DNA of 64,000 bases from Ostreococcus lucimarinus (Eukaryota): assembly GCA_000092065.1 (NCBI GenBank), contig CP000598.1, one strand, 5' to 3'. The notes below the pieces were generated by a model. That model made no database searches. It saw only the letters and a program-made list of their open reading frames with translations, and was not told the origin of the DNA. The position numbers were made by a program, and so were the translations under genes. The first letter of the stretch is position 1. Each line of letters starts with the position of its first letter. Below, piece by piece: positions 1,206 to 26,220 of the stretch.

Positions 1206-1362
1206 TAAACCCTAAACATAGTTTTCGTTTTTTTTGCTCAGGTTTCGCCAGGCACGTGTCAAAAATTGGCAAATTCTGAAACTCGTTTTTTGCTAGGGTT
1301 TAGCTTTAACGTCTCCGAACGCTCCGACGGGGAGGCGATGACGCCGCCGCCACTCGTCGACG
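1206..1362 (+). promoter_or_regulatory. Telo-box 5' module, copy A (upstream of the giant DUF285 gene)
   Basis: CCCTAAA repeats at 1206-1217. Core gtgtcaaaaa..ttctgaaactcg.tttttgctAGGGTTTAGc at 1256-1304. gccactcgtcgacg at 1349-1362. The same ordered blocks occur at 14937-15065, 18010-18176 and 19759-19946. Confidence 0.6.
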
Positions 1363-10190: not shown

Positions 10191-10227
10191 TAAGATCTCT
10201 TCAGAACCAATCGTGTGAGTGAAGTGT

Positions 10228-10725
10228 TCAGGCCAAGTCGCGTAACTCATCTAGCGTAAATTGATACTTGTCGAGACTGCGCTTTGAAGGCAGCGTGCCA
10301 CGCGCTCGAGCATTCTTGAGGCACGTCTTACGCAGTATTCTTTTCGCGTGCTGCTTGTAATAATTGAGTTGTCTGTAGTTACCATCGCCGCCGTCACGCT
10401 TCGGCGTATATTGGGCTCTGCTGTAGGCTTGACTCTCGTCCACGTTCTCGTGACACGCGTGTTTCTGGCTGCGTCCAGCAGCTCGGGAGTTGAATAAGCC
10501 GTCGCGCTTCTCTCTCATGTATGCACTTTTACGTTGATGGAGCTCTCCAGCTGGAATGTCCTTTTCGAGAACTCTCACGTCCGCGTCGCCAAACGTGAAG
10601 ATTGGATGTCGTGCGTATTTATGCGAGGCAAGGCGCGCTCTGAGCGAACCTGTCGTCGATCCGATGTACGTTTTGTCACATTTCGCATTATCGCTAAACA
10701 TTTCGTACACGCACCCCGTAGGCAT
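10228..10725 (-). CDS. GIY-YIG family nuclease-like protein (copy 1)
   Basis: ATG verified. N-terminus MPTGCVYEMFSDNAKCDKTYIGSTTGSLRARLASHK fits the GIY-(10-11 aa)-YIG motif plus the conserved Arg, with downstream E and N residues (AYMREK, FNSR). Basic C-terminal tail. Confidence 0.6.
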   Translation of the reverse strand: MPTGCVYEMFSDNAKCDKTYIGSTTGSLRARLASHKYARHPIFTFGDADVRVLEKDIPAGELHQRKSAYMREKRDGLFNSRAAGRSQKHACHENVDESQAYSRAQYTPKRDGGDGNYRQLNYYKQHAKRILRKTCLKNARARGTLPSKRSLDKYQFTLDELRDLA

Positions 10726-10894
10726 TTGTCCTGGTTACCTATCCATCCCTAAGAAAATATTGTTGCCTCCTCCTGCGGTTTGCAGTCACATTCGAGAGAC
10801 CATAGGTACTCGTGTCGCTGCGTGGGGTGCAAGGTCCGGGGTGTAGATATCGAACCGCCTGATTTCACACCTGGACGTTCGTGATCCGACGAGA

Positions 10895-11085
10895 CCTGAC
10901 GAAATGACGAACTTGTTTTGTCGTCCCCAAATTCGTCAGCCCGTCGTTCGGTCACACTTTGTGTGTACCAATGATGAAAATGACGAAATGTTAAAATATT
11001 TTAATGTTTATTTTTATTTTAGATCTATGACAAGCAACAGTGTAGACCTTTATGAAAACAGTTCGTCATTCGTCATTTCGTCAGG
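10895..11085. repeat. Inverted repeat around an AT-rich spacer (also at 22837-23027)
   Basis: cctgacgaaatgacgaac (10895-10912) is the reverse complement of gttcgtcat(tcgtcat)ttcgtcagg (11061-11085). The arms resemble an internal piece of the 9704-10020 element (cctgatttcac, caaaccatggtc). Confidence 0.7.
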
Positions 11086-11150
11086 ATCCAAACCATGGTC
11101 TTTTCGGTGTCTTGTTGAGTCTTCATATTGCAAATGTACGAATCACAAAA

Positions 11151-11669
11151 TTAGTATGAACACCAGACGACCGCCGGCGCGAGCTCCGTCTCCCCCGTGT
11201 ACCCATTGTTCTTCAGCCACTCGAAGCACCCGTCGCGGTCAATTTCCCAATAGACGCCCTTCTCGTCCCTACCTTGCCTCAGGTGGTCCTCTTCCATTGG
11301 GATCCTGTGGCCCTTTTCCTTCTTGAAGAAGTCCTTGAGCTTATTGCCGACCTTCGTCGCGCTATCTTGTCCACGCGCAGCCGCTGGCAACCACGTCTGG
11401 TATTCGATGAAGATGTCACTGTTGCGGATTTTATTTCCAACCCACTTCTCAGGGAATTCAACAGTGACGCAATGCTCAAACCATCGAGTGAACTTGGGCA
11501 TGCAGCCACGCTTCATTTCCGAATACGCGTCGGTCGTAGGTCTCGTGCGCTCCACATGATAACCGGTACGGAGAAGTTTATATTTATTAATTAAAGACTC
11601 GCGCGTGTTGGCGCTAAATGATTTTATTGCTGCCGAGAGACTCAAGTTTGGCCGTCGTTTGAGTCGCAT
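11151..11669 (-). CDS. Hypothetical protein (copy 1); weak resemblance to the C-terminal region of D5/P4-type primase-helicases
   Basis: The track ORF 11151..11726 starts at TTG; the first ATG is at 11669 (MRLKRRPNLSL..). The segment FTRWFEHCV..IFIEYQTWL..KVGNKLKDFFKK..GVYWEIDRDGCFEWLKNNGY is the basis for the tentative similarity. Function is unverified. Confidence 0.45.
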   Translation of the reverse strand: MRLKRRPNLSLSAAIKSFSANTRESLINKYKLLRTGYHVERTRPTTDAYSEMKRGCMPKFTRWFEHCVTVEFPEKWVGNKIRNSDIFIEYQTWLPAAARGQDSATKVGNKLKDFFKKEKGHRIPMEEDHLRQGRDEKGVYWEIDRDGCFEWLKNNGYTGETELAPAVVWCSY

Positions 11670-11746
11670 CGATGGGTCGCGCCCGCCGATATAACGCCGG
11701 CGTTTCGGACACGATCTTGAAAACAAGCACTGGTTGACTTGATTGA

Positions 11747-14272
11747 TTAGGAAACCTTATCCGTGCCTTTTACGCTGAGCCCGGTCATGGACGGCTTCGT
11801 CGGCATGGTGAACGCGGTGTAGTCCGCCGCCGTGGGCACCGTGATGCTCGTGTCGTACGACATCCCGGAGCACGCCGACGCATCGGCGGGAGCAAGCATT
11901 TCGACACCACTTTCGAGTTTCAAGACGTACCGGTCGCCAGTCGATGGTTGTTTGAACGTGGTGCCATCGGGGATCAGGACATCCGGACGGCGATGGTAAC
12001 CATTGTTGTCGTCGCACTCCTCGTTGCCATACTGGTCGACCTCGGGCGCCGCGCGCGAACCAGTCATCGGATTGAAGCAAATGAACGGCGCGTCGCCCAA
12101 CCAACCGCCTTCGTAACGCACGTTGAGATTCACCCCGGAGTAGTCGGTACCGGATGGAGAGCGCAGCAACACGGCGTCCGTGGGTATCTTGCCTTGAAGC
12201 TGGAGAGGCGCATCCATGAACTTCTTTGACGCGGAGTCCGAAGGATCTTCGAGCCACGCCATGCCCTCCCAATTGCTTGAGCTCCACTCGTAGTGCACAT
12301 CCAATTTGTTGGGTTCCTCGCAAACGTCGGTAGTGGCGGTGCAACTCAAAGTGTCGAGGTTCGCAGGTGTAGCTTCGAAGAGAACCATATGAACTTCTCC
12401 CGAGTCAAAGAATGAGTTGGTTGGGTCCATTACGACTTCAGCGCCGAGGGTGCCGGAAACGTCTTCCTTCAACGAGCCGGTATCTTTGTCGAAGACGTAC
12501 TTTTTATAAGTGCTTCGAGCGTCGTTGTATCCGTTCGGCGAGCCGTAGAACTGGCTGTCGTGACTGCTCGCACTCGATAGCTTCGTCTGGTCGATACACC
12601 GCTCGCCGCACGTGAGTGCGAGGTGGCTGCTGAGCGACCCAGGGGGGACGGTTTGCGCGTCAGACACTTTGAAGTGCGTCAGGTTAAGCAAACTCGCAGA
12701 GCCTCGGCCGAAGATGCTTCCCCAGCAGCGTATGATTTGGTTGTCAATGTCAGCCATCGTGAGCGCACGCGGAGTCGTGATTGAGTTCGTGTTCAGCGAT
12801 CCACCGTTCCAAGTTCGCTTCGACGACAACACGAGTGCGTTCGCGTCGGAGTCATACCTGAACTTGACCTCAACTTCTGCAGCGTTAGTGTCATCCCAGA
12901 ACCAGCCTGTGATCGTCGCCCCTTGGTAGTCGCTTGCGCTTCGCACCGTCGCCGTGAACTTGTACAACACCCCGCGTGAGACTTTGAGCCTCTTGTTCAC
13001 GTTCAGTATCGGATCATCCCAATCGACAATTTCCTCTACTACGTTCCCGTCGGTGAACGCGGTTTGAGCGATAGTCTTCTCGGCGGTACTGAGCGCGGTG
13101 TCGGAAATGTAGTCGTAATCGGAAATGTAGAGATTGCCCGGATAGTGCAGATCAGCATTATACGTCTTGCCGTCGCTGCCTGTAGCCTGAAGATGCACGT
13201 AGCTTTGAAGGTTCACCTTCGCCCCGTTGCTGTCGTACGCGCCGTAGCGCTCACCGAAGAACGATCTGTTCTCGAGTTCATCGCAGAATGACTGCCCGTA
13301 CGCCTTCGTCTTGACGAGCGTAGCGGTAGTCACCAATTGACCCGCTTGTGTCGAACCATTATCAAAGTCGATGGTCTGGAAAGAGGCCTTCGTGATGTCG
13401 TTTTCTGCGCGCGATTTAGCACCCGCGGTGAATGAATTGCTGCCTCGTGTCACCTCTTCCCACCACGTGACCCCGGTCGCCGTGCAATCCGAATCCGCGT
13501 CGGTGGTTTCGCACTCGCGACGAACCACACCTTTGATGCGTTGGGACGCGGTCGAGCCAGTCGGCGATTGGTACGTAAAGGTAAAGTTTTTCACCAAGAT
13601 TTTGTCAGACTTGATGGCGACGTCATCGCGCTTGACGATCATTTCCGTGTCGATGTTCGGCATTTCTGGGGTATCGCTGAGGGCTACCCAGACGTTCGTC
13701 TTGAAATCACGGGTATCGCTCGCGTCGTCGATGTCTGGGCCCGTGGCGTTGACGACCCAACGGTACGTAACCTTACCCTTGATTCGGTCGCCGTCGCTGT
13801 TGTCACAGTGGAAAGGATCGATCTCAGCGATGTATGGGCCAGTGTTCAGGTTCGCCGTCCAGTTCACCGAGGCGACGTAGCAAAGAACCATGTTTGGTAT
13901 CTGGAAAATTTCGGTACTTACAGCGTCGACGAACGTCTCCGCCGGCGGCGCCGTGGCGTAGTCGGACGTCGAAGAGAACGAAGACACTTCGAGAGGCGTC
14001 ACCTCGACGAGCGAACGACCATCGATTCGAGACGAACCAGAAGACGTCGTCGAAACACCCTCTGACGGGATCATGGTGACTTTACGCGGCGTCAACGCCG
14101 CCTTGAGCGCGTTCGTCTTCGCCGCGCCCGACAGCCCGCTGACGGTGGTCGGGGTCGGGGCCGGGGCCGGGGTCGCGTCGTCATCCCTGAGCCCGATGCC
14201 GAGGCCGGTGCCAAGGGCGACCACCACGGCGGCGACACCAACGATCGCGATCGCAACGCCACGTCTCACCAT
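11747..14272 (-). CDS. 841-aa membrane-anchored protein with a large Cys-containing extracellular-type domain, unknown family (copy 1)
   Basis: ATG verified. N-terminal anchor MVRRGVAIAIVGVAAVVVALGTGLGIGL, a PAPAPTPTT linker, then a long uninterrupted ORF with a non-repetitive, protein-like sequence. Confidence 0.75.
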   Translation of the reverse strand: MVRRGVAIAIVGVAAVVVALGTGLGIGLRDDDATPAPAPTPTTVSGLSGAAKTNALKAALTPRKVTMIPSEGVSTTSSGSSRIDGRSLVEVTPLEVSSFSSTSDYATAPPAETFVDAVSTEIFQIPNMVLCYVASVNWTANLNTGPYIAEIDPFHCDNSDGDRIKGKVTYRWVVNATGPDIDDASDTRDFKTNVWVALSDTPEMPNIDTEMIVKRDDVAIKSDKILVKNFTFTYQSPTGSTASQRIKGVVRRECETTDADSDCTATGVTWWEEVTRGSNSFTAGAKSRAENDITKASFQTIDFDNGSTQAGQLVTTATLVKTKAYGQSFCDELENRSFFGERYGAYDSNGAKVNLQSYVHLQATGSDGKTYNADLHYPGNLYISDYDYISDTALSTAEKTIAQTAFTDGNVVEEIVDWDDPILNVNKRLKVSRGVLYKFTATVRSASDYQGATITGWFWDDTNAAEVEVKFRYDSDANALVLSSKRTWNGGSLNTNSITTPRALTMADIDNQIIRCWGSIFGRGSASLLNLTHFKVSDAQTVPPGSLSSHLALTCGERCIDQTKLSSASSHDSQFYGSPNGYNDARSTYKKYVFDKDTGSLKEDVSGTLGAEVVMDPTNSFFDSGEVHMVLFEATPANLDTLSCTATTDVCEEPNKLDVHYEWSSSNWEGMAWLEDPSDSASKKFMDAPLQLQGKIPTDAVLLRSPSGTDYSGVNLNVRYEGGWLGDAPFICFNPMTGSRAAPEVDQYGNEECDDNNGYHRRPDVLIPDGTTFKQPSTGDRYVLKLESGVEMLAPADASACSGMSYDTSITVPTAADYTAFTMPTKPSMTGLSVKGTDKVS

Positions 14273-14409
14273 CGTCGCGCGTTGAAATGCGGCGACGACA
14301 AGTGGCGACGGTGACGCGATCTGCCCGCACGCAATTCAATTCCTTCGGGTCACCTTATCTTTTGGAGCCCCCGGAAACGCGACTGTTTACCAATACGATG
14401 GTTCCCGGG

Positions 14410-14685
14410 TATTGATTACTGGGCCTGTTGGCGCCCCGCGGGTGTGTGTGTGCCAGCCCGTAGGGTTTAAGGTTTAGGATCCGAAATATGGAGCCTCGCT
14501 ATTAAGCCGGGGATCCTCCGCGGGCACGCGCCCCCGCGGGCGTGTGTGTTTTCGCGGTCGGTCGGACGGGAAGCCTGTTGGCGCCCCACGGGTTTGTGTG
14601 TCGGTCCTTAGCGTTTGGGGTTTAGTATCGGACATACGGAGCCTCACTATTTAGCGGTATGACCACATATATTAATTGATTTATA
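14410..14685. repeat. Degenerate telomere-like / subtelomere-like block (1.5 units); related block at 17466-17640
   Basis: Shared unit: ggggatcctccgc..ccgcgggcgtgtg..ttcgcggtcggtcggacg..ccgttggcgccccgcgggtttgtgtg..agggtttag.ggttaggatcggacatatggagcctcactatttagc. Confidence 0.8.
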
Positions 14686-14759
14686 CCATTCATCCCGCGC
14701 ATAAAATCGGGTAGATTACTGTACAGTAATCTACCCGACTTTATGCGCGGGATGAATGG
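14686..14759. repeat. 74-bp near-perfect palindrome (36 of 37 arm positions pair)
   Basis: ccattcatcccgcgcataaaatcgggtagattactgta|tacagtaatctacccgactttatgcgcgggatgaatgg; centre ctgtacag. Weaker arm similarity extends about 25 bp on each side. Confidence 0.9.
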
Positions 14760-14936
14760 CATAAATCCCATAGTATATGGGGACCGGACCGGCGGGACGT
14801 GTGATTTTTTACCGTAGGGGTCATGATTGGTCGTTCGGGGGTACTCGTATGAAATAATGAAACACCATACTTTTATTTACATTTTGGTTTATTAAAAAAA
14901 CCCGTACGTGCATTTACTACAGAATTGACCACTTTT

Positions 14937-15065
14937 CGCGCGGGTTTCACCAGAAAGCTTCAAAAATCGTGCCTTTTCTAAAACTCAATTTTCGCTAGGG
15001 TTTAGCGCCCCCGGTTTTCCGAGGATGCGGGCAGATCTCGCCGTCGGCGCCACTCGTCGACGACC
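14937..15065 (+). promoter_or_regulatory. Telo-box 5' module, copy B
   Basis: AGGGTTTAG at 14997-15005, gccactcgtcgacg at 15049-15062, upstream ATG at 15025, main ATG at 15066 in the context gaccATGG. Confidence 0.6.
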
Positions 15066-16181
15066 ATGGCCTCCCCGTCGCTCGATGCCGTGCGTTGGAG
15101 CGAATACCGGGCGCTCATGCAAGCGTGGGAAGCGTTTAACCCACACAGGGAGCTCCTGCGTCGGTTTTTACAGAAGCAATCGCACACGGAGCAGTGCCCA
15201 CCCGGCGTCCCGTACGTACCAGATCTGCCGGAGCCGGAGTACTTCGCCGTGAAGAGACGAATCGAGGCCGGGGAAACCGTTCCATGTCCTGGATTCTTAC
15301 GCGAACGCGACAACCGGCGCAATCAATGCCGCTGCGGGGCTCCACTCAGAGTTGATGACACTGGCAATATCTCCTGCACTTCCAAAATTCCCCGTCATGA
15401 GAACTATGGTCCTGTACCTCGTTGCTGTTGCTGGGCCGAAGAAGAGCACGCTCGTAACCAACGACATGACATGCCGCCGTATATTTTAAGGCCGCCACCC
15501 ATAGTGTCCCCCCCTCAAGTACCACCGTCGTCTCAAGTGCTCTTGAGCTTTTTGGAGGGGGTCAGGCCAAGCATGAACGCCAACTACCTGCGATGCGTTC
15601 AAGACATAGACGAAGAGCTCGCTCGTCTGAATGAGCAGCTTGCGGACAACAGCATTTCAACGACGAGGCGTGAAGCGATTCAACAGCATATAGTGAGCGA
15701 ACGCTCCAAACTTGAGGCCAAAGACACACAGTTACAAGATTTTTTTAACACGACGACCGCACTGGCAGAATCCGTGCACACGTTCGAGCACAGAGTGGCA
15801 GAGAAATACCAGAAAGCTGTGGATGCATACATTAAAGCGCAACTGGATGAAGTGGTCGTACCTCCGGATAGTAGAGGGAATCCAAAGTTTAAGGACTCAG
15901 TCGATGGCATCGACAGAGAGTTGGCCAAGTTAGAATCAGAAAATGGAGGCATCTCCAACGACAGCGCTCGCGCTCGCGTCGCCTCCAAACGTAAGAGCGT
16001 GGAAGAGTGTGAATCAGAGCACAAGCGCCTCAAAACCACTTCGGTTGAGTACAACTTGTCTATTTTGAAAGGGAGTTTGGAAAAAGACAAATCTATGTCT
16101 GCTGAAGACAAAAGACGCTGGGAATGCGTCATAAACGCCGTCGGGTTGTTACGAGCAAACGATGCACCAAGAACGCCGTAG
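15066..16181 (+). CDS. Coiled-coil protein of unknown function, paralogue of 18177..19220
   Basis: ATG verified. Shared block NYLRCVQDIDEELARLNEQLADNSISTTRREAIQQHIVSERSKLEAKDTQL versus NYLRTVERIDKNIQVLEAQLQDENISETRRSVIPQHIEDTRAKLKEQDNSL. Confidence 0.7.
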   Translation: MASPSLDAVRWSEYRALMQAWEAFNPHRELLRRFLQKQSHTEQCPPGVPYVPDLPEPEYFAVKRRIEAGETVPCPGFLRERDNRRNQCRCGAPLRVDDTGNISCTSKIPRHENYGPVPRCCCWAEEEHARNQRHDMPPYILRPPPIVSPPQVPPSSQVLLSFLEGVRPSMNANYLRCVQDIDEELARLNEQLADNSISTTRREAIQQHIVSERSKLEAKDTQLQDFFNTTTALAESVHTFEHRVAEKYQKAVDAYIKAQLDEVVVPPDSRGNPKFKDSVDGIDRELAKLESENGGISNDSARARVASKRKSVEECESEHKRLKTTSVEYNLSILKGSLEKDKSMSAEDKRRWECVINAVGLLRANDAPRTP

Positions 16182-16186
16182 CAACA

Positions 16187-16245
16187 GTATGGGCAAACAG
16201 TTAGGCGTTCTCCATGGCCTCCATTCGCGCGACCAGAGCGTTGAC
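16187..16245. repeat. 58-bp junction module, second copy at 20768-20825
   Basis: gtatgggcaaacagttag...ttctcca..gcctccattcgcgcgaccagagcgttga. It lies 5 nt after the TAG of 15066..16181 here, but inside the ORF at 20768. Confidence 0.8.
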
Positions 16246-16395
16246 GCGCTCTTCGAGTTCGTCGATGCGGCGTTGTTTAGCGTCGTTCGCGCTCTCTACA
16301 TCGGCGCGACATAGAATAACGATAATCTATATCTGCTATATCTGCTTAATATTCTGCTTAAGATTTCGGCACCCTCGCTTAAGATCTCTTCAGAA

Positions 16396-16703
16396 TGGAA
16401 TCTCTGAATGCAAGGCGTGGATGTACATTAAACCATGAACGGACCACGGTTCGATTTTTTTTATTACAAGTGTAGGTCTACTTTTACGTTTGGTGGACTC
16501 CGCTTGAGTCGGCCGATGTCACCGTGTCAGGTGTTCAGAGTGCACTAGAGACGTGACCGCCGATACACAGGGCGTCGAGCTCGGCGTGCCTGATTTCACG
16601 ACTCGGCGACCATGATTTGAAACCGAAATGACCATCGGCTTCAGGCCCAGGCGCGGCCGCAATGCTACTTTAAACTTAATATTTTTTTTTTGAAAAAAGA
16701 GTA
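16396..16703. mobile_element. Second copy of the 9704-10020 element core
   Basis: It starts immediately after cttaagatctcttcagaa (16378-16395), the same sequence as the flanking repeat at 9688-9703. It is collinear up to the T-run/A-run gaaaaaagagta, and no matching right-hand repeat is seen. Confidence 0.6.
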
Positions 16704-16756
16704 CTATAGTACTTTTGGTGTTTAAACGTGTTCGTGATATGATTGATAGTCCGTGA

Positions 16757-17407
16757 TTATACGTCGACTTTTGCGGGCGCCTGTTGGACGTAGATGACTT
16801 GCGGCTGCTGCGGCCGCGTCGCCACGGCGGTGGCGATGAGCTGGTCGCGTCGGTACGCGAAGCACCCGCACCGCCCACAGTAGCAGCACGAGACGATGAG
16901 CAACGTCAGGCCGACGACGGTACCAATGATGATGCCCGCGATCGCGCCACCGTCTGGTTTACAGCAGTCGTCACCGCAGCATACGTTTTGGCCGCCCGTG
17001 TACATACTGCACCATTTACCGCCTTTTTTGTGGAGTGGTGGGCACCCGTGGGCGCCGTCCCAGCATTTGGCTCCATTGGCAACTTCCGTGGCGATTTCTG
17101 TTCCACACGAGGTGTAACTGGAAATTGTGTCCGTACACTTGGACGGGCACGATTGGTCGATCGAGTTGCCATACGGTGGCGGTCCCGCGCTGCACCCGAA
17201 ACAGTCTGAGCACACACCGACCGTCACGCCGTTGTAGGTCCCGGTGTTGTAACAGAACTCTTCGCTCGATGCCCAGGGGTTCGCGCTCGCGTAGCCGCTC
17301 GAAACAACGCAGTCGGTGTGGGTTGAACACGTGTCGCCCGCGTCCGCGCGCGCGGTGTGCGCGACGGCGAGGCCGAAAACGAACGGTACGAGGAGGTTCT
17401 TAAACAT
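16757..17407 (-). CDS. Cys-rich type I membrane protein (signal peptide, Cys-rich ectodomain, one TM helix, short tail)
   Basis: ATG at 17407 gives MFKNLLVPFVFGLAVAHTARA. Many Cys residues (CCGDDCC). TM helix AIAGIIIGTVVGLTLLIVSCCYC. The track ORF extends to 17464 from a non-ATG start. Confidence 0.6.
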   Translation of the reverse strand: MFKNLLVPFVFGLAVAHTARADAGDTCSTHTDCVVSSGYASANPWASSEEFCYNTGTYNGVTVGVCSDCFGCSAGPPPYGNSIDQSCPSKCTDTISSYTSCGTEIATEVANGAKCWDGAHGCPPLHKKGGKWCSMYTGGQNVCCGDDCCKPDGGAIAGIIIGTVVGLTLLIVSCCYCGRCGCFAYRRDQLIATAVATRPQQPQVIYVQQAPAKVDV

Positions 17408-17465
17408 CTTTGGCGTGGGTTTATCTCGCAAAAGGATTTCAGCGAGGCTTGAGGTGCGCCGCAAA

Positions 17466-17640
17466 GTGAGGCCCGGAGATCCGGGGATCCTCCGCAGCCC
17501 CGCGGGCGTGTGCCTGGCGTGTGCCCTTCGCGGTCGGTCGGACGAGGGGCCCGTTGGCGCCCCGCGGGTTTGTGTGCCAGCCCCAGGGTTTAGGGGTTAG
17601 GATCGGACATATGGAACCTCACTAATTAGCCGCATGACCT
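17466..17640. repeat. Degenerate telomere-like block, homologous to 14515-14685
   Basis: See 14410-14685. Contains cagccccagggtttaggggttaggatcggacatatggaacctcactaattagc. Confidence 0.8.
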
Positions 17641-17838
17641 CATACATTAAGTTATTTATATCTAGTCATCGCGCGAAATGGCGTGGGTAAATTACCGTAC
17701 TAGGGTTTCCGTAAATAAAATACGTACCGAAAATAATGAATTAATTTACACGGGCGTGCCACGACGTCGTCGCACGCGCTCGTGAAAATTTGGTTGACGG
17801 CTTGGATTCGAGATTTTGGGGAGGTAAAATTCGGCCAA

Positions 17839-17880
17839 ATCCCGCGCATATATTACTGTACAGTAATCAAAGCGCGGGAT
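17839..17880. repeat. 42-bp palindrome related to 14686-14759
   Basis: atcccgcgcatatattactgta|cagtaatcaaagcgcgggat; same ctgtacag centre and same atcccgcgc/gcgcgggat arm ends. Confidence 0.85.
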
Positions 17881-18009
17881 GTGGCCAAAGTCTTTGGGTC
17901 ACAGCCCCTCACTTTGGGGGCTGCAGTGACGGGATGTGGGAATTTTACCGTATGGGTCGTGACTCGTCGTTGGGGGTACTACTATGAAATCCCATAATTC
18001 TATTGTACA

Positions 18010-18176
18010 TAGGGTTTAGAAATTAGGGTTTAGACGTCAAAAATCGCTCGGGTTCCATCAGAAACGTGTCAAAAACGGGCCTTTTCTGAAACTCGATTTT
18101 TGCTAGGGTTTAGCGCCCCCGGTTTTCCGAGGATGCGGGCAGAGCTCGCCGTCGGAGCCACTCGTCGCCGCACACG
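18010..18176 (+). promoter_or_regulatory. Telo-box 5' module, copy C
   Basis: tagggtttagaaattagggtttagac at 18010-18035, core with AGGGTTTAG at 18105-18113, and a 15-codon uORF (18133-18180) whose TGA overlaps the main ATG (ATGA). Confidence 0.6.
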
Positions 18177-19220
18177 ATGACCGATTCAGTCGCGCACGCC
18201 TCACCGACATGGAGAACGTACTCATTAAACCCGTCGCTGCAACCGGACTGGATGAACGGCACGGCGGAGGTAGAGGCGGTCAAAACAGCGGAGGATGATC
18301 TCGAGCGCTCGTACAAGAACAAGCCGTTCTTCAAGGACGCAAGCTACGAGGCATTCGCCAGACAACGAGACGAGTATGACAAACCGACGCCCGACGGCCT
18401 CGAGGAGTTCAAGCGCATCTTACGGTCGAATTATCTTCGCACCGTAGAGCGCATCGATAAAAATATCCAAGTTCTGGAAGCCCAGCTACAAGACGAGAAT
18501 ATCTCTGAAACGCGACGGTCGGTTATCCCGCAGCACATCGAGGACACTCGTGCGAAATTAAAAGAGCAAGACAATTCATTGAACGCGCTGTGCGCCGATG
18601 TGGATGCGGTTATCGCAGATTTGAAAGGCTTGCCCGATAAAATTGCCGACATTAAAGAGCGCGCCTCTGAACAACTTCAGCGACACAAAAGAAAAAGGAC
18701 TAATGCATCTTTGGAACGCAACCTCGAGGAGTTGAGCGATGCGTTGCGCAGCTACGAGGCGAAAAAAGAACAGGAGAGGCTCACCCTTTGTGAACACCAA
18801 ATTCGCCAACAGAATCTGCCATTGTCCCAGTATGTTCGCTACTCAGGGGGAGGAGTTATCGACGTTGTTCATCCTGTGGGTGTCATCGGCTGCGATGGTA
18901 GTAACCTCAGCGTTGATGGTCGTGGTGGTCGTGGTGGTCGTGGTGGTCGTGGTGGTCGTGGTGATCGTGTTCTTTCGGTTAATCGTCAACGTTACTTTGA
19001 AGTGCCACAATGGCGGCCTGAATGGGGACCTGAGAAGCAATTTTGTGCGTGCAAGAGCTTCCAAGAATGGTACAAAGTCGACGCCGGAGACCTTCTTTAC
19101 AGCGCGCTTCGTGGCGTAGAGGGCGCGCTAAAGGCGCTCAGTGGTTCGGGAGATGACACCTCTTCGCTTCGACGGCGCTTGGGCGATGCCAATTTGGACG
19201 AGGCAAGCACAGGGAGTTAA
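18177..19220 (+). CDS. Coiled-coil protein with an RGG repeat, paralogue of 15066..16181
   Basis: ATG verified. Shares the NYLR..ID...L..QL.D..IS.TRR block. DGRGGRGGRGGRGGRGDR is encoded by a GGTCGT-type microsatellite. Confidence 0.7.
   Translation: MTDSVAHASPTWRTYSLNPSLQPDWMNGTAEVEAVKTAEDDLERSYKNKPFFKDASYEAFARQRDEYDKPTPDGLEEFKRILRSNYLRTVERIDKNIQVLEAQLQDENISETRRSVIPQHIEDTRAKLKEQDNSLNALCADVDAVIADLKGLPDKIADIKERASEQLQRHKRKRTNASLERNLEELSDALRSYEAKKEQERLTLCEHQIRQQNLPLSQYVRYSGGGVIDVVHPVGVIGCDGSNLSVDGRGGRGGRGGRGGRGDRVLSVNRQRYFEVPQWRPEWGPEKQFCACKSFQEWYKVDAGDLLYSALRGVEGALKALSGSGDDTSSLRRRLGDANLDEASTGS
18918..18968 (+). repeat. In-frame hexanucleotide microsatellite (ggtcgt/ggtggt) encoding the RGG box
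   Basis: ggtcgtggtggtcgtggtggtcgtggtggtcgtggtggtcgtggtgatcgt read directly. Confidence 0.9.
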
Positions 19221-19276
19221 TATATGTGGACGTATATTTTGTTGTCCACGAATGGCGCGATATAGAATAACGATAT

Positions 19277-19504
19277 CTAGCCGCTCTCCACCGCCTCCAG
19301 TCTCGACACAATGTCACTGAGCTCACTGCGGAGTTCGTCGATTTGCTGATCTCTCGATGCAACGGCGGCCTCTAAATCGGCGATTTGAGCGTCGTGCTGT
19401 TGCTGTATGCGGTCAACTTCCTGTAATGCTGCGGTTGAGAGCGTTGAAATTGCCGATTCTTGGAGGTGCTTGAAATCGGTAACAACCTCACCGTAGACGA
19501 ACAA
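19277..19504 (-). CDS. Coiled-coil ORF fragment without an ATG (possible exon or relic)
   Basis: ..LQEVDRIQQQHDAQIADLEAAVASRDQQIDELRSELSDIVSRLEAVESG*. The track start is TTG and the frame stays open upstream into repeat 19507-19740. Confidence 0.3.
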   Translation of the reverse strand: MFVYGEVVTDFKHLQESAISTLSTAALQEVDRIQQQHDAQIADLEAAVASRDQQIDELRSELSDIVSRLEAVESG

Positions 19505-19506
19505 TC

Positions 19507-19740
19507 CGCGCCGCGCGCGCGCCAGTCCGGTGCGGGGTCGACCGAACTAGCCGTTGGTCGTAGTTTCCGACCGTTTGAATTTGAATTCGCTGCGCGCGCG
19601 GCGCTTGAAGACGACCGTTGGGGCCCAACGAGCATGTAAATCTTTGAGGCAGTTTTCGCCGCGCATGACGCGACGTGGTGTGCGTCGGAGTACGTCTCCG
19701 GCCGTCTCGACGGCGCGGAAAGGTTGCAAGAAGTCTCCTC
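19507..19740. repeat. Repeat Y, copy 1 (copy 2 at 62007-62240, same orientation)
   Basis: Shared: cgcgccgcgcgcgcg, ccgaccgttt.aatttgaattc, gtctccg.ccgt.tcgacggc.cggaaaggttg.aagaag.ct.ctc. Confidence 0.75.
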
Positions 19741-19758
19741 GACGCATTACATTAAATC

Positions 19759-19946
19759 TAGGGTTTAGAAATTAGGGTTTAGACATCAAAAATCGCCGAG
19801 GTTCCATCAGAAAGTTGTCAAAAACGTGGCTTTTCTAAAACTCGATTTTTACTAGGGTTTAGCGACCTCCGGTTTTTCGGCGGAGGAATTGCGTGCGGGC
19901 AGATCTCGTCGTTGTCGCCACTCGTCGACGCGGCGATGCTCTCAAC
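19759..19946 (+). promoter_or_regulatory. Telo-box 5' module, copy D
   Basis: tagggtttagaaattagggtttagac at 19759-19784, core AGGGTTTAG at 19853-19861, gccactcgtcgacg at 19917-19930. The upstream ATG of copies B and C is GTG here. Confidence 0.6.
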
Positions 19947-20767
19947 ATGGCAAAGGTGAAGATAATGCTAATATTGTCGATGGTGTTGATACTGCGCATG
20001 CCGAGCGCACTCGCAGGCGCACTCACACACGCACTCCTCCGTGTGGGTGGTCCACGTGTAAGGCAAGCTGTCGAAAAAGGGATGAAACAAGGCATTATGG
20101 ATTCGTTTCCAGGAGGCGTCCAGGACCTCCTCGCATACTTGCACCGCCACAGAGAGGACGAAATCAAACAGGAGTTTGGGTGCATGGCGCTCATGATCAT
20201 GTGCCGGGAAAACACTGAGAACAGACGCATCGCCGGAGAGCAGGGCGCGATCCAGGCCGTCGTGAACGCCTTGAACCGCCACAGAGAGAACAAGGAAGTG
20301 CAGAGGGACGGACACATGGCGCTCGTGATCATGTGCGAGGACAACACCGAGAACAGACGCATCGCCGGAGAGCAGGGCGCGATCCAGGCCGTCGTGGACG
20401 CCTTGAACCGCCACAGAGGGAACAGGGAAGTGCAGAGGGACGGACAACTGGCGCTCGCGATCATGTGCAAGGACAACACTGAGAACAGACGCATCGCCGG
20501 AGAGCAGGGCGCGATCCAGACCGTCGTGGACGCCTTGAACCGCCACAGAGGGAACAGGGAAGTGCAGAGGGACGGACAACTGGCGCTCGCGATCATGTGC
20601 AAGGACAACACTGAGAACAGACGCATCGCCGGAGAGCAGGGCGCGATCCAGACCGTCGTGGACGCCTTGAACCGCCACAGAGGGAACAAGGAAGTCCAGG
20701 CGAACGGGCACATGGCGCTCGCGAGCATGTGCATTAACAACACTGAGAACAGACGCATCGTAGACGC
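19947..20767 (+). CDS. ARM/HEAT-like repeat protein, probable exon 1 (the ORF itself continues to the stop at 20825)
   Basis: ATG at 19947 (MAKVKIMLILSMVLILRMPSALAG). About 4.5 tandem 44-aa units NTENRRIAGEQGAIQAVVDALNRHRGNREVQRDGQLALAIMCKD, which match the armadillo-repeat pattern. Confidence 0.6.
20110..20760 (+). repeat. 132-bp (44-codon) tandem repeat array inside the ARM-like gene
   Basis: Unit starts (aacac.gagaac) are at 20211, 20343, 20475, 20607 and 20739. Units 20343-20474 and 20475-20606 differ at 2 nt. Confidence 0.9.
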
Positions 20768-20817
20768 GTATGGGCAAACAGTTAGTTATTCTCCACAGCC
20801 TCCATTCGCGCGACCAG
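20768..20817 (+). other. Candidate 50-nt GT-AG intron joining the ARM ORF to the downstream ORF
   Basis: GTATGG donor at 20768 and CAG acceptor at 20815-20817. Removing it restores the frame (..RRIVDA|ALKDSGRSDDAQINALY..). Hypothesis only. Confidence 0.3.
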
Positions 20818-21832
20818 AGCGTTGAAGGACAGCGGGCGCAGTGATGATGCGCAAATAAACGCACTGTACGCGATTGCAAACGAGATGGCGCACGCTGTGA
20901 ACATGATCTCGATTCAAGGTGTCGCTGAAGGCCCGGGCGTTGAAGAACGAGTAAAACACACACAAGATTTCCTACAGCAACTTTTGTCGGACGTCGACAT
21001 CAAACTTGAGATCGAAGAAAAGCAAAACGCCGAGGCTCTGCGTGTGGTATTGCGAGTGCACGCGTATGGTCGTGCCATGAAAATTATCGAGGATCACATG
21101 CTAGAATATGCGCGCGCTGAACAAGTGGAGGAGCTGGCCGTGCTCGGACAAGAATCTGCGGCACTGTTAGAAGAACAAAACCTCCTTTCCATGGGTTTTG
21201 GCGTCAAGGAGCTGAATATGTCGATACTGGCAATCGACGCGGAGCATTTCACTGTGCACCTAGAGAAAGCTACTTCCCTGGACGAAGTCGGCAGTGCTGT
21301 GGCCATTCTCAACGCCGTCAATTCCATTGCAGTCCGTCATCTCGAGTGGAGAGATGCGAGCGTTGCAACTTTTAGCCACCTTGAAACCGAAGAGTCCATT
21401 GGTATTGAAGTCAAAATCAACAGGGACGTACTATATTCTGCTGCGATGCTTCTGAAAGATCACGAATCCCAGCTGAACCAAGAACTGGCGAGGCGCGCGC
21501 GCGAATGGAAGCTTCTGTTTAAGAATTTTGGAAAAGTGAAATTCAACCAGACGCTTGAAGAAATGGTTCAGGTGGAGCTCACCTCGCCTGAAGGCGCGGA
21601 CGCTGATTTAACACGCCGTGCTAAAAAATTTGTGGATTGGTGCGTGGAATCTTCACAGCAGCTGAGCCGAGGGGAGTTTAACCAGCGTCTTCCTGGGATT
21701 ACGGAAACGGCATATATCAGCCTAAAATCCCTCGCACAGAAGTCTGCCAGTTCGCTCGTTAAGATCGCACAAAAAACAGCTGCATCGAGGCGTAGCAAAA
21801 CAAAGACGTCAATATTCGGGTTTGCGCGCTAA
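20818..21832 (+). CDS. Domain paralogous to residues encoded at ~7640-8520 of the giant gene; probable exon 2 of the ARM gene, or a 5'-truncated relic
   Basis: INALYAIANEMAHAVNMI vs [53 protein letters not shown] vs [46 protein letters not shown] vs [11 protein letters not shown]. There is no ATG at its 5' end. Confidence 0.5.
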
Positions 21833-22124: not shown

Positions 22125-22161
22125 TAAGATTTCTCCAGAACGAATCGTGTGAGTGAAGTGG

Positions 22162-22659
22162 TCAAGCCAAGCCACGCAACTCATCTACCGTAAATTGATA
22201 CTTGTCGAGACTGCGCTTCGAAGGCAGCGTGCCGCGCGCTCGAGCATTCTTGAGGCACGTCTTACGCAGTATTCTTTTCGCTTGCTGCTTGTAATAACTG
22301 AGTTGTCTGTAGTTACCATCGCCGCCGACCCGCTTCGGCGTATATTGAGCTCTGCTGTAGGCCGGACTCCCGTCCACGTTCTCGTGGCACGCGTGTTTCT
22401 GGCTGCGTCCAGCAACTCGGGAGTTGAATAAGCCGTCGCGCTTCTCTCTCATGTAGGCACTTTTACGTTGATGGAGCTCTCCAGCTGGAATGTCCTTTTC
22501 GAGAACTCTCACGTCCGCGTCGCCAAACTTGAAGATTGGATGTCGTGCGTATTTATGCGAGGCAAGGCGCGCTCTGAGCGAACCTGTCGTCGATCCGATG
22601 TACGTCTTGTTACATTTCGCATTATCGCTAAACATTTCGTACACGCATCCCGACGGCAT
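22162..22659 (-). CDS. GIY-YIG family nuclease-like protein (copy 2)
   Basis: Same 165-aa ORF as copy 1 with about 9 aa substitutions (for example CDK/CNK, FTF/FKF, DES/DGS). The frame is intact. Confidence 0.6.
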   Translation of the reverse strand: MPSGCVYEMFSDNAKCNKTYIGSTTGSLRARLASHKYARHPIFKFGDADVRVLEKDIPAGELHQRKSAYMREKRDGLFNSRVAGRSQKHACHENVDGSPAYSRAQYTPKRVGGDGNYRQLSYYKQQAKRILRKTCLKNARARGTLPSKRSLDKYQFTVDELRGLA

Positions 22660-23092
22660 TTGTCCTGATTACCTATCCATCCCTAAGAAAATATTGTTGC
22701 CAAAAGTGCTCCTCCTGTGGTTTGCAGTCACATTCGAGAGACCATAGGTACTCGTGTCGCTGCGTGGGGTGCAAGGTCCGGGGTGTAGATATCGAACCGC
22801 CTGATTTCACACCTGGACGTTCGTGATCCGACGAGACCTGACGAAATGACGAACTTGTTTTGTCGTCCCCAAATTCGTCAGCCCGTCGTTCGGTCACACT
22901 TTGTGTGTACCAATGATGAAAATGACGAAATGTTAAAATATTTTAATGTTTATTTTTATTTTAGATCTATGACAAGCAACAGTGTAGACCTTTATGAAAA
23001 CAGTTCGTCATTCGTCATTTCGTCAGGATCCAAACCATGGTCTTTTCGGTGTCTTGTTGAGTCTTCATATTGCAAATGTACGAATCACAAAA

Positions 23093-23611
23093 TTAGTATG
23101 AACACCAGACGACCGCCGGCGCGAGCTCCGTCTCCCCCGTGTACCCATTGTTCTTCAGCCACTCGAAGCACCCGTCGCGGTCAATTTCCCAATAGACGCC
23201 CTTCTCGTCCCTACCTTGCCTCAGGTGGTCCTCTTCCATTGGGATCCTGTGGCCCTTTTCCTTCTTGAAGAAGTCCTTGAGCTTATTGCCGACCTTCGTC
23301 GCGCTATCTTGGCCACGCGCAGCCGCTGGCAACCACGCCTGGTATTCGATGAAGATGTCACTGTTGCGGATTTTATTTCCAACCCACTTCTCAGGGAATT
23401 CAACAGTGACGCAATGCTCAAACCATCGAGTGAACTTGGGCATGCATCCACGCTTCATTTCCGAATACGCGTCGGTCGTAGGTCTCGTGCGCTCCACATG
23501 ATAACCGGTACGGAGAAGTTTATATTTATTAATTAAAGACTCGCGCGTGTTGGCGCTAAATGATTTTATTGCTGCCGAGAGACTCAAGTTTGGCCGTCGT
23601 TTGAGTCGCAT
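23093..23611 (-). CDS. Hypothetical protein (copy 2 of 11151..11669)
   Basis: Identical to copy 1 except for one substitution (EYQTWL to EYQAWL). Confidence 0.45.
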   Translation of the reverse strand: MRLKRRPNLSLSAAIKSFSANTRESLINKYKLLRTGYHVERTRPTTDAYSEMKRGCMPKFTRWFEHCVTVEFPEKWVGNKIRNSDIFIEYQAWLPAAARGQDSATKVGNKLKDFFKKEKGHRIPMEEDHLRQGRDEKGVYWEIDRDGCFEWLKNNGYTGETELAPAVVWCSY

Positions 23612-23688
23612 CGATGGGTCGCGCCCGCCGATATAACGCCGGCGTTTCGGACACGATCTTGAAAACAAGCACTGGTTGACTTGATTGA

Positions 23689-26220
23689 TTAGGAAACCTT
23701 ATCCGTGCCTTTTACGCTGAGCCCGGTCATGGACGGCTTCGTCGGCATGGTGAACGCGGTGTAGTCCGCCGCCGTGGGCACCGTGATGCTCGTGTCGTAC
23801 GACATCCCGGAGCACGCCGACGCATCGGCGGGAGCAAGCATTTCGACACCACTTTCGAGTTTCAAGACGTACCGGTCGCCAGTCGATGGTTGTTTGAACG
23901 TGGTGCCATCGGGGATCAGGACATCCGGACGGCGATGGTAACCATTGTTGTCGTCGCACTCCTCGTTGCCATACTGGTCGACCTCGGGCGCCGCGCGCGA
24001 ACCAGTCATCGGATTGAAGCAAATGAACGGCGCGTCGCCCAACCAACCGCCTTCGTAACGCACGTTGAGATTCACCCCGGAGTAGTCGGTACCGGATGGA
24101 GAGCGCAGCAACACGGCGTCCGTGGGTATCTTGCCTTGAAGCTGGAGAGGCGCATCCATGAACTTCTTTGACGCGGAGTCCGAAGGATCTTCGAGCCACG
24201 CCATGCCCTCCCAATTGCTTGAGCTCCACTCGTAGTGCACATCCAATTTGTTGGGTTCCTCGCAAACGTCGGTAGTGGCGGTGCAACTCAAAGTGTCGAG
24301 GTTCGCAGGTGTAGCTTCGAAGAGAACCATATGAACTTCTCCCGAGTCAAAGAATGAGTTGGTTGGGTCCATTACGACTTCAGCGCCGAGGGTGCCGGAA
24401 ACGTCTTCCTTCAACGAGCCGGTATCTTTGTCGAAGACGTACTTTTTATAAGTGCTTCGAGCGTCGTTGTATCCGTTCGGCGAGCCGTAGAACTGGCTGT
24501 CGTGACTGCTCGCACTCGATAGCTTCGTCTGGTCGATACACCGCTCGCCGCACGTGAGTGCGAGGTGGCTGCTGAGCGACCCAGGGGGGACGGTTTGCGC
24601 GTCAGACACTTTGAAGTGCGTCAGGTTAAGCAAACTCGCAGAGCCTCGGCCGAAGATGCTTCCCCAGCAGCGTATGATTTGGTTGTCAATGTCAGCCATC
24701 GTGAGCGCACGCGGAGTCGTGATTGAGTTCGTGTTCAGCGATCCACCGTTCCAAGTTCGCTTCGACGACAACACGAGTGCGTTCGCGTCGGAGTCATACC
24801 TGAACTTGACCTCAACTTCTGCAGCGTTAGTGTCATCCCAGAACCAGCCTGTGATCGTCGCCCCTTGGTAGTCGCTTGCGCTTCGCACCGTCGCCGTGAA
24901 CTTGTACAACACCCCGCGTGAGACTTTGAGCCTCTTGTTCACGTTCAGTATCGGATCATCCCAATCGACAATTTCCTCTACTACGTTCCCGTCGGTGAAC
25001 GCGGTTTGAGCGATAGTCTTCTCGGCGGTACTGAGCGCGGTGTCGGAAATGTAGTCGTAATCGGAAATGTAGAGATTGCCCGGATAGTGCAGATCAGCAT
25101 TATACGTCTTGCCGTCGCTGCCTGTAGCCTGAAGATGCACGTAGCTTTGAAGGTTCACCTTCGCCCCGTTGCTGTCGTACGCGCCGTAGCGCTCACCGAA
25201 GAACGATCTGTTCTCGAGTTCATCGCAGAATGACTGCCCGTACGCCTTCGTCTTGACGAGCGTAGCGGTAGTCACCAATTGACCCGCTTGTGTCGAACCA
25301 TTATCAAAGTCGATGGTCTGGAAAGAGGCCTTCGTGATGTCGTTTTCTGCGCGCGATTTAGCACCCGCGGTGAATGAATTGCTGCCTCGTGTCACCTCTT
25401 CCCACCACGTGACCCCGGTCGCCGTGCAATCCGAATCCGCGTCGGTGGTTTCGCACTCGCGACGAACCACACCTTTGATGCGTTGGGACGCGGTCGAGCC
25501 AGTCGGCGATTGGTACGTAAAGGTAAAGTTTTTCACCAAGATTTTGTCAGACTTGATGGCGACGTCATCGCGCTTGACGATCATTTCCGTGTCGATGTTC
25601 GGCATTTCTGGGGTATCGCTGAGGGCTACCCAGACGTTCGTCTTGAAATCACGGGTATCGCTCGCGTCGTCGATGTCTGGGCCCGTGGCGTTGACGACCC
25701 AACGGTACGTAACCTTACCCTTGATTCGGTCGCCGTCGCTGTTGTCACAGTGGAAAGGATCGATCTCAGCGATGTATGGGCCAGTGTTCAGGTTCGCCGT
25801 CCAGTTCACCGAGGCGACGTAGCAAAGAACCATGTTTGGTATCTGGAAAATTTCGGTACTTACAGCGTCGACGAACGTCTCCGCCGGCGGCGCCGTGGCG
25901 TAGTCGGACGTCGAAGAGAACGAAGACACTTCGAGAGGCGTCACCTCGACGAGCGAACGACCATCGATTCGAGACGAACCAGAAGACGTCGTCGAAACAC
26001 CCTCTGACGGGATCATGGTGACTTTACGCGGCGTCAACGCCGCCTTGAGCGCGTTCGTCTTCGCCGCGCCCGACAGCCCGCTGACGGTGGTCGGGGTCGG
26101 GGCCGGGGCCGGGGCCGGGGTCGCGTCGTCATCCCTGAGCCCGATGCCGAGGCCGGTGCCAAGGGCGACCACCACGGCGGCGACACCAACGATCGCGATC
26201 GCAACGCCACGTCTCACCAT
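23689..26220 (-). CDS. 843-aa membrane-anchored protein (copy 2 of 11747..14272)
   Basis: Identical peptide apart from one extra PA dipeptide in the linker (APAPAPTPTT). Confidence 0.75.
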   Translation of the reverse strand: MVRRGVAIAIVGVAAVVVALGTGLGIGLRDDDATPAPAPAPTPTTVSGLSGAAKTNALKAALTPRKVTMIPSEGVSTTSSGSSRIDGRSLVEVTPLEVSSFSSTSDYATAPPAETFVDAVSTEIFQIPNMVLCYVASVNWTANLNTGPYIAEIDPFHCDNSDGDRIKGKVTYRWVVNATGPDIDDASDTRDFKTNVWVALSDTPEMPNIDTEMIVKRDDVAIKSDKILVKNFTFTYQSPTGSTASQRIKGVVRRECETTDADSDCTATGVTWWEEVTRGSNSFTAGAKSRAENDITKASFQTIDFDNGSTQAGQLVTTATLVKTKAYGQSFCDELENRSFFGERYGAYDSNGAKVNLQSYVHLQATGSDGKTYNADLHYPGNLYISDYDYISDTALSTAEKTIAQTAFTDGNVVEEIVDWDDPILNVNKRLKVSRGVLYKFTATVRSASDYQGATITGWFWDDTNAAEVEVKFRYDSDANALVLSSKRTWNGGSLNTNSITTPRALTMADIDNQIIRCWGSIFGRGSASLLNLTHFKVSDAQTVPPGSLSSHLALTCGERCIDQTKLSSASSHDSQFYGSPNGYNDARSTYKKYVFDKDTGSLKEDVSGTLGAEVVMDPTNSFFDSGEVHMVLFEATPANLDTLSCTATTDVCEEPNKLDVHYEWSSSNWEGMAWLEDPSDSASKKFMDAPLQLQGKIPTDAVLLRSPSGTDYSGVNLNVRYEGGWLGDAPFICFNPMTGSRAAPEVDQYGNEECDDNNGYHRRPDVLIPDGTTFKQPSTGDRYVLKLESGVEMLAPADASACSGMSYDTSITVPTAADYTAFTMPTKPSMTGLSVKGTDKVS

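Follow-up and report, generated by a model that had tools for sequence, protein, structure and literature searches.

Two neighbouring helical-protein genes of Ostreococcus lucimarinus as probable ancient paralogues headed by copies of a portable 5′ module

The DNA analyzed here, referred to as the window, is a stretch of 64,000 nucleotides from Ostreococcus lucimarinus (GenBank assembly GCA_000092065.1, contig CP000598.1). It contains two genes on the + strand, A (15066..16181) and B (18177..19220), which lie 3.1 kb apart and are each preceded by a copy of the same non-coding 5′ module. Gene A encodes 371 amino acids (aa), with a variable, Cys-containing N-terminal half and a nearly invariant helical C-terminal part of 215 aa. 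Gene B encodes 347 aa, with a helical hairpin at residues 72-209 and a Cys/His/Trp-rich C-terminal part that is modeled at low confidence. The product of A is identical to XP_001422295.1 / A4SA77 ("predicted protein", O. lucimarinus CCE9901), encoded on a 149,386-bp contig, and a gene with exactly the product of B is absent from the public gene-call collection. An initial annotation of this DNA read the pair as the result of rapid birth and divergence of a gene family inside a mosaic region. The evidence presented here indicates that A and B are fresh duplicates in appearance only, each standing behind a copy of a mobile promoter-like module. They are probably ancient paralogues of a small family of Ostreococcus and marine picoalgae, each headed by a portable cis module that is copied together with gene cassettes.

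The two proteins have one central block in common, encoded on the + strand at 15552..15818 in A (aa 163-251) and at 18399..18665 in B (aa 75-163), which consists of a helix, a turn (motif D-N-S-I-S-x-T-R-R in A) and the start of a long helix. BLASTP aligns these segments with 30 of 89 residues identical (34%, 52.8 bits, E 4e-12), and an hhalign-type profile-profile comparison of the two ortholog alignments gives a probability of 97.8% (E 1e-12) over 83-85 columns, with the core consensus ...YLR.V..ID..L..QL.D..IS.TRR..I.QHI.... In a tblastn search of the whole window the block was recovered at E 5e-10 and no third copy was found. Outside the block, the N-terminal parts of A and B align with a score below the mean of shuffled sequences, and the score of the C-terminal parts was equalled by 219 of 2000 shuffles and is not significant. 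Thus, the central block and the unrelated termini described in the initial annotation are both supported, with the exception of a weak colinear second motif, HKR(K/L)(R/K)T..S.E.NL (A 318-338, B 169-190; hhalign E 0.044).

The homology between A and B is old. DNA identity within the block is 46% and third-codon identity is 29%, about as for unrelated sequence, and the rest of the coding sequence is not alignable. Orthologs of A form 13 clusters at 74-98% identity, and 47 homologues of B were recovered, among them the O. tauri protein (72%) and a distant clade (40-44%). Intact full-length open reading frames (ORFs) are retained in >50 sequence clusters, in lineages down to 27-41% identity. The family is narrow, since an exhaustive profile search of 1.84 billion representative proteins returned 17 matches only, and it appears to be confined to Ostreococcus and related marine picoalgae. 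The distant members separate by type. P0093, P0109 and P0115 are A-type, matching A over 227-259 aa including the C-terminal half (E about 2-3e-30) and matching B in the block only. P0082, P0094 and P0096 are B-type and align with most of the length of B, whereas against A the first two match the block only and P0096 gives a marginal match elsewhere (E 0.004). These proteins are about 27-41% identical to their own type, and composition and habitat suggest that their hosts are other Mamiellophyceae. Because both types occur in distant lineages, both predate the separation of these lineages, and together with the third-codon identity of 29% this makes the A/B split ancient.

A recent local tandem duplication, which would have made A, B and their upstream regions at once and been followed by very rapid divergence of the coding ends, might be expected from the short distance, the common strand and the colinear upstream homology, from the high ratio of nonsynonymous to synonymous substitution rates (dN/dS) and from a region rich in segmental duplications. 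Such an origin is very improbable. The upstream regions are 76-89% identical, whereas third-codon sites of the block are saturated and the remaining coding sequence cannot be aligned. A and B do not form a group of their own apart from homologues in other lineages, and the A-type and B-type orthologue sets each cover several lineages. The O. tauri orthologue of B lies at the subtelomere of chromosome 9 with neither A nor the module nearby, and the module heads unrelated genes as well. Outside the window, no recovered locus has an A-type and a B-type gene within 10 kb. With a saturated block, both types in distant lineages and orthologues that lie apart, rapid birth in the mosaic region is not what these data describe. 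The lesson is that common flanks and a common domain need not signal recent gene birth.

The upstream homology has a different history. It had been estimated at about 600 bp, and it is real, but it is patchy and not private to the pair: about 500 of ~650 bp aligns, in colinear patches at 76-89% identity. These are 14936-15062 with 18044-18170 (89%, 128 nt), 14507-14724 with 17481-17700 (76.5%), 14421-14509 with 17547-17632 (84%) and 14793-14855 with 17930-17990 (82.5%). Since this non-coding sequence is well conserved between the two genes while the coding sequence is saturated, the module does not stem from the event that separated A and B, and the 5′ similarity is separate from, and younger than, the A/B split.

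The proximal module before A (14936..15065, + strand) contains a telomere-like box, CTAGGGTTTAG, at 14995-15005 and a leader, TGCGGGCAGATCTCGCCGTCGGCGCCACTCGTCGACG, at 15026-15062, which ends 3 nt before the ATG. The distal upstream region of A (14286..14935) lies within a 780-bp divergent intergenic region, has an internal repeat (14423-14507 / 14573-14655) and recurs upstream of other genes at two further loci (L012 and L020); an inverted leader copy at 14293-14329 stands before a - strand ORF of 841 aa. The module before B (17481..18176, + strand) comprises distal patches at 17481-17700 and 17930-17990, telomere-like boxes at 18011, 18025 and 18103-18113 and the leader at 18134-18170. A third proximal copy (19746..19946, + strand) precedes an ORF with ARM repeats whose first ATG is at 19947, an arrangement also seen in L017 and L021, and a fourth, more diverged copy (1231..1362, + strand) lies ~270 nt upstream of the ATG at 1635 of a giant DUF285/PARCEL ORF. 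The last ~37-49 nt of the module are also found inverted before both - strand ORFs of 841/843 aa (14293-14329, 26241-26277). The window thus holds four direct and two inverted-leader copies, with 0 expected by chance.

The module is built around a core of ~95 nt within ~130-170 nt of proximal homology, and some copies are extended by ~500 bp of distal repeats. The core reads TTCTrAAACTCGATTTTyGCTAGGGTTTAGCG..CCGGTTTTCCGA..GGATGCGGGCAGATCTCGCCGTCGGCGCCACTCGTCGACG and ends 3-6 nt before the ATG in A and B. Some 60-70 nt before the ATG the module has a perfect telomere-repeat core, TAGGGTTT = AAACCCTA (the telomeres of these algae consist of TTTAGGG repeats). This telomere-repeat core is found in all module copies, and those before B and the ARM ORF have two further boxes upstream. 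A scan of public metagenome contigs with the pattern TAGGGTTTAGC-N35-60-GCCACTCGTCG matched 13 contigs, where the genes behind the module are A orthologues, a B orthologue, the ARM ORF and at least 3 other unrelated ORFs. In the window and these contigs together, the scope of all module counts given here, it heads at least 7 unrelated genes, and gene A often has a module on both sides. The A orthologues carry the module, which is degenerate in the most diverged of them (L001), where only ~25 nt of the leader is kept. The B orthologues of O. tauri and L003 are without it, indicating that B gained the module after the O. tauri lineage split off. AT-rich palindromes occupy equivalent upstream places in the two genes, at 14663-14782 for A (60+60 nt, 88% complementarity) and at 17830-17889 for B (30+30 nt, 83%), and may form hairpins or be prone to recombination. 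An Rfam scan of 14000-20200 detected nothing beyond a sub-threshold miRNA-like match on a palindrome, which we take as chance. In our literature search, neither work on telo-boxes in Ostreococcus nor expression data for O. lucimarinus chromosome 18 turned up.

Module and gene can move as one unit. Positions 14963..16254 of the window (+ strand, 1292 bp), which comprise the proximal module, A and a 3′ module with 73 nt of 3′ flank in all, match at 99.8% identity an insert that lies on a metagenome contig (L025/L029; 64.5 kb, 62% GC) between the genes for a TatD nuclease and a bestrophin; this contig encodes the same 371-aa protein. On a related contig TatD is directly followed by bestrophin, with flanks 94.5% and 97.6% identical, and the site is empty. 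The empty site reads ...CATTCTAGAACCATAATCAGCC... and the filled site ...TATTCTAGAA/AATCG...(1363 bp)...GCTAGGG/TAGAACCATCAGCC..., with slashes at the insert ends. The empty site has a single TAGAA, and the 1363-bp insert is flanked by one on each side. On the left the insert begins ~40 nt ahead of the telomere-like box in one copy of the module, on the right it stops inside the box of the following copy, and it spans slightly over one period of a module-gene array.

This filled site could be taken as the work of an unrecognized transposable element with the module as its end, or of an element resembling a miniature inverted-repeat transposable element (MITE) or a solo long terminal repeat (LTR), which bears a promoter and mobilizes A and B as passengers. 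The 5-bp direct duplication, the empty site in a relative, the many dispersed module copies, the 120-nt and 60-nt palindromes in the distal parts and the GIY-YIG-like endonuclease ORFs nearby are all in keeping with such an element. We nevertheless regard it as unlikely. The insert termini are non-equivalent points in two direct module copies, with neither terminal inverted repeats (TIRs) nor LTRs at the insert ends, and the breakpoints of homology vary among copies. The 1.3-kb cassette encodes no transposase, integrase or reverse transcriptase, its only ORF being A, which matches no enzyme family. An insert of one-plus array period is also what templated repair with microhomology would give. 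We infer that the cassette was copied by break repair or ectopic recombination with microhomology, a route that fits the 4-nt microhomology reported at a translocation junction in O. mediterraneus, on its small outlier chromosome (SOC; PMC13390643). Site-specific recombination at the module was rejected because the homology breakpoints differ between copies.

The 3′ module after A (16187..16254), whose last position is the 3′ boundary of the mobile A cassette, corresponds on the - strand to the C-terminus of a small S-like coiled-coil ORF (..IDELEERVNALVARMEAMENA, followed by the stop). It equals the last 58 nt of the ARM ORF (20768-20825), so the C-terminus of that ORF looks rearranged, and it resembles the end of the S ORF after B (19277-19330). 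The S ORF itself, which encodes a small coiled-coil protein (19277-19740, - strand), stands tail-to-tail with B and is split by an in-frame stop; S-like C-terminal fragments follow A (16190-16270) and the ARM ORF (20770-20825), and a related copy lies near 62006-62239. A distant B-type gene also resides in a cassette, of 1.17 kb and 88.5% identical, common to two otherwise unrelated contigs (L023 and L031), the former of which has a homologue of the S-like ORF. A further contig (L013, Ga0315315_10097664) carries a natural chimera in which an unrelated Cys-rich ORF of 398 aa is joined to the promoter module of B and to its first seven codons (MTDSVA.); a 152-nt B coding fragment, the 3′ module and a piece of the S gene follow.

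The O. tauri orthologue of B (L002) lies second from the end of chromosome 9, 2.7 kb from the (CCCTAAA)n telomere array, and an A orthologue of 84% identity, with the module present, is the second gene from the telomere (1 kb) of a 1.28-Mb long-read contig. Other copies of A and B are found among housekeeping genes on high-GC contigs (L001, L004 and L029 are among the non-telomeric loci), and full-length orthologues of each gene are often on standard chromosomes. In the window there are single TTTAGGG matches only, and A and B do not lie beside a telomere array there. With orthologue loci that are scattered and twice subtelomeric, the family is positionally unstable, leaning towards chromosome ends.

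Both genes consist of a constrained core and fast-evolving remainder. The dN/dS of A against its orthologues is 0.6-0.8 overall, 0.7-0.9 for aa 1-155 and 0.27-0.49 for aa 156-371. That of B is 0.34-0.52 overall and 0.24-0.44 in the helical core, and in the C-terminal third (aa 211-347) it is mostly 0.7-0.8 and reaches up to 0.7-0.9. Thus, the description of A and B as fast-evolving paralogues holds outside the core, and of the earlier reading the half concerned with rapid divergence survives. The high values in A aa 1-155 and B aa 211-347, together with the lack of a called gene for B and of database matches, could also be taken to mean that A and B are decaying or chance ORFs in repetitive DNA and not functional genes. 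There is scarcely any room for this explanation: the ORFs are intact at full length in >50 clusters down to 27-41% identity, dN/dS is 0.24-0.49 in the helical core, and the predicted B helices exceed 90 in model confidence. Synonymous sites of O. lucimarinus and O. tauri are expected to be saturated genome-wide. The dS of B between O. lucimarinus and the chromosome 9 locus of O. tauri (L002) is only 0.34, and the dS of A against L008, L001 and L019 is 0.10-0.36 in the N-terminal half and 0.00-0.10 in the C-terminal half. The low value of B and the difference between the halves of A suggest that gene conversion or recent inter-lineage exchange may have taken place.

Structures were predicted with AlphaFold2 from the ortholog alignments, and the overall predicted local distance difference test score (pLDDT) is 64 for both proteins. 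The model of B has helices at 72-105 and 111-209, with pLDDT above 90 at aa 40-150 (91-94 across 50-150) and 59-87 beyond 150. The model of A has helices at 156-193, 199-262 and 273-364, with pLDDT 76-91 over the first two. Helix 1, the turn with the IS.TRR motif and the beginning of helix 2 make up the shared block. A and B are both long coiled-coil/helical-hairpin proteins, which is a structural class and not a homology family. Outside this core, A adds the variable N-terminal half with conserved cysteines, and B adds the conserved but poorly predicted Cys/His/Trp-rich C-terminal segment.

Family searches with A, B and all family members found nothing in Pfam at E<=0.01, and at E<=1 scattered matches mostly to coiled-coil/helical families. 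PHROGs gave nothing usable (E>=0.03), and the PDB sequence-profile search nothing or E>=0.017. When the models were compared with PDB and BFVD by Foldseek, the matches were to generic helical proteins, and no match reached E<=0.001. Literature searches for the protein accessions found no papers, and neither the A/B family nor the module-and-cassette unit is described in the literature searched. A gene family of unknown function, as the initial annotation had it, agrees with these results, and the family is a narrow orphan one. Judged from the models, the helical core would most likely serve as a coiled-coil dimerization or scaffold element, with the turn and helix as an interaction surface.

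Gene B also contains an array of (GGTCGTGGT)n at 18917..18969 (+ strand), which encodes RGGRGGRGGRGGRG and is length-polymorphic among close relatives. A (GGR)n tract gained from a hexanucleotide repeat had been proposed; the tract is real and a lineage-specific gain in B, but its unit is of 9 nt (TGGTCGTGG x5.9, 97% matches), and a 6-nt reading matches 78% only. There are five RGG units in B of the window (GGTCGTGGT x5), three in the closest relative (P0042), one in each of P0043, P0044, P0046 and P0047 and zero in the other aligned orthologues, that of O. tauri included. All five fall in a segment with pLDDT below 50, and we infer a recent expansion by slippage within a disordered linker. 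In every orthologue the tract is either shorter or missing, so that a neutral microsatellite is the likelier interpretation.

The genomic setting of A and B is a small outlier chromosome. GC is 47-56% across most of the window, which encodes FkbM methyltransferases, GT17 and STELLO glycosyltransferases, a nucleotide-sugar transporter, a GDP-mannose-4,6-dehydratase-family (NAD-dependent) epimerase/dehydratase and UDP-glucose dehydrogenase, so that low GC is combined with sugar-modification and orphan genes as in other SOCs. Chromosome 18 of O. lucimarinus is a SOC of 149 kb with 53% GC and 78 ORFs (PMC3491373). The window is assigned to it because GC and sugar-gene content match this description and gene A is identical to an O. 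lucimarinus record. SOCs are hypervariable and associated with virus resistance (PMC5082852; PMC13390643), and their evolution involves duplications as well as translocations from standard chromosomes (PMC5082852; PMC13390643; bioRxiv 10.64898/2026.07.10.737489). Their mosaicism and translocations are already known in general.

The surroundings of the A-B-ARM array are themselves mosaic. A 4.2-kb direct segmental duplication (copy I 10191-14406, copy II 22125-26353, 98.8% identical) flanks the array on either side and is a ready substrate for unequal crossing-over. Each copy encodes a GIY-YIG-like ORF (10234-10725 / 22168-22659; Pfam E 0.008 only) and the - strand orphan ORF (841/843 aa) with the inverted leader copy before its start. 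Within the giant DUF285/PARCEL-type repeat ORF (1545-9368, 2607 aa as listed, first in-frame ATG 1635), a segment of 822 bp is present twice with 100% identity (1902-2723 = 2835-3656). A PARCEL protein of O. lucimarinus, XP_001422294.1, has been cited, and one PARCEL-containing ORF counted on chromosome 18 (PMC2996958); this accession immediately precedes that of gene A. The ARM-repeat ORF (19947-20825) has a 132-bp tandem repeat at 20183-20760 (4.4 copies, 94% matches), and a 336-aa ORF (20822-21832) overlaps its end. Divergent from B lies a Cys-rich ORF of 235 aa (16757-17464, - strand) with a predicted signal peptide and membrane anchor, and the flank downstream of it recurs after the DUF285 ORF (9684-10023 = 16376-16706, 92.6% identity).

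One of the contigs with the distant B-type cassette, L023 (JGI Ga0366842_150945; 18 kb, GC 49.5%), has this gene beside the S-like ORF and a DUF285 protein, and further encodes a C5 DNA methylase fragment, an HHH_8 protein, a Prim-Pol/D5-like helicase and a GIY-YIG-like ORF 50% identical to that of the window. The contig may come from the outlier chromosome of a different alga, or may be a mobile or virus-like element. If the latter, A, B and their neighbors might be left over from a virus-like or other large mobile element or be carried by one, as the four families common to L023 and positions 1-23 kb of the window (B, S-like, GIY-YIG-like and DUF285) and the helicase and methylase beside the B-type gene would suggest. 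This explanation is improbable, given that the profiles of both families found no relative in 2.9 million IMG/VR viral contigs, that no structural match to viral proteins was obtained and that no capsid or packaging gene was recognized on L023. In addition, L031 has the same B-type cassette in a different, sugar-gene context, and A/B orthologues are found among ordinary nuclear genes. A prasinovirus origin was dropped, as the scans of IMG/VR viral contigs recovered no relatives of A or B.

In the explanation that we favor, ancient paralogues headed by a portable module, the family members have a helical-hairpin core of ~85 aa in common, and the attached parts differ and evolve fast. The adjacency of A and B and their common 5′ region would come from the module and not from local tandem duplication. 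The module, a telomere-like box plus a leader abutting the start codon, heads a set of unrelated genes, for which it would serve as promoter and 5′ untranslated region (UTR). Ectopic recombination, gene conversion or break repair would transfer copies of the module and its single-gene cassettes among chromosome ends, the outlier chromosome and, occasionally, internal sites. Several points weigh against parts of this account. The 5-bp TAGAA duplication would fit a transposition-like event as well, and the promoter and 5′ UTR assignment is read from the position of the module. Conservation of the module is no higher than that of adjacent sequence (dS 0.03-0.10 in the C-terminal half of A with the same partners), and its copies may resemble each other because they are young and not because they are constrained. 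Some decay would be compatible with the dN/dS of 0.7-0.9 that parts of both ORFs show, and the role proposed for the proteins draws no support from any Pfam, PHROGs, PDB or fold match.

The SOC is linked to the rapid acquisition of virus resistance in Mamiellales, and how it is constructed and regulated matters. The locus yields a sequence-defined unit of module, single gene and short 3′ element that has demonstrably been copied to a new site in a wild population. The presence of the same module at chromosome ends of related genomes ties SOC mosaicism to subtelomere-type exchange, and the short motif can be used to catalogue such cassettes and to test their co-regulation. A more far-reaching and doubtful possibility is that the telomere-box module acts as a portable handle for both regulation and recombination, by which a class of "contingency" gene cassettes would be defined in Ostreococcus. 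If so, unrelated genes would receive a common and possibly switchable expression state (telomere-position-like or Polycomb-type), and homology between modules would let cassettes copy between subtelomeres, the virus-immunity outlier chromosome and internal sites. The module would then be a principle on which the SOC is built, and A and B, as partners under common regulation, would pair through the helical block.

One of the closest known systems is the Mamiellales SOC, described for O. tauri chromosome 19 and O. mediterraneus chromosome 12 with duplications, repeats and translocations from standard chromosomes (PMC5082852; PMC13390643). The window is alike in its low-GC chromosome type, its sugar-modification genes, its mosaic of segmental duplications and its genes with counterparts on standard chromosomes, and short junction microhomology has been reported for SOCs. 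Published accounts concern large blocks, ~2-kb tandem "accordion" repeats and transposons, whereas a short promoter-like module on single-gene cassettes and the A/B family were not found in the literature searched. Subtelomeric multigene families with conserved upstream regions, such as those with the Plasmodium var "ups" promoters and the yeast and Chlamydomonas families, offer a second comparison. A/B members are likewise telomere-adjacent in two lineages, have conserved upstream sequence with telomere-like repeats, and combine ectopic exchange, fast protein evolution and relocation of copies. They differ in that there are two paralogue types only, each mostly single-copy per genome as far as visible, in that the module heads unrelated genes, and in that A and B of the window are not next to a telomere array. 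Trypanosome VSG cassettes, which are exchanged by gene conversion with upstream 70-bp repeats, resemble the A cassette by analogy only, as a 5′ element, an ORF and a short conserved 3′ element copied to new sites; the elements are unrelated in sequence, and A and B give no evidence of an expression site, antigenic function or programmed switching. The RGG/RG-box motif requires at least 3 close RGG in a disordered segment, and B has five, but they are not conserved in orthologues. Finally, plant telo-box promoter elements (AAACCCTA) are bound by TRB proteins. The module has a perfect AAACCCTA core, the reverse complement of TAGGGTTT, ~60-70 nt before the ATG and would be a candidate element of this kind, or the box may be a relic of a subtelomeric origin.

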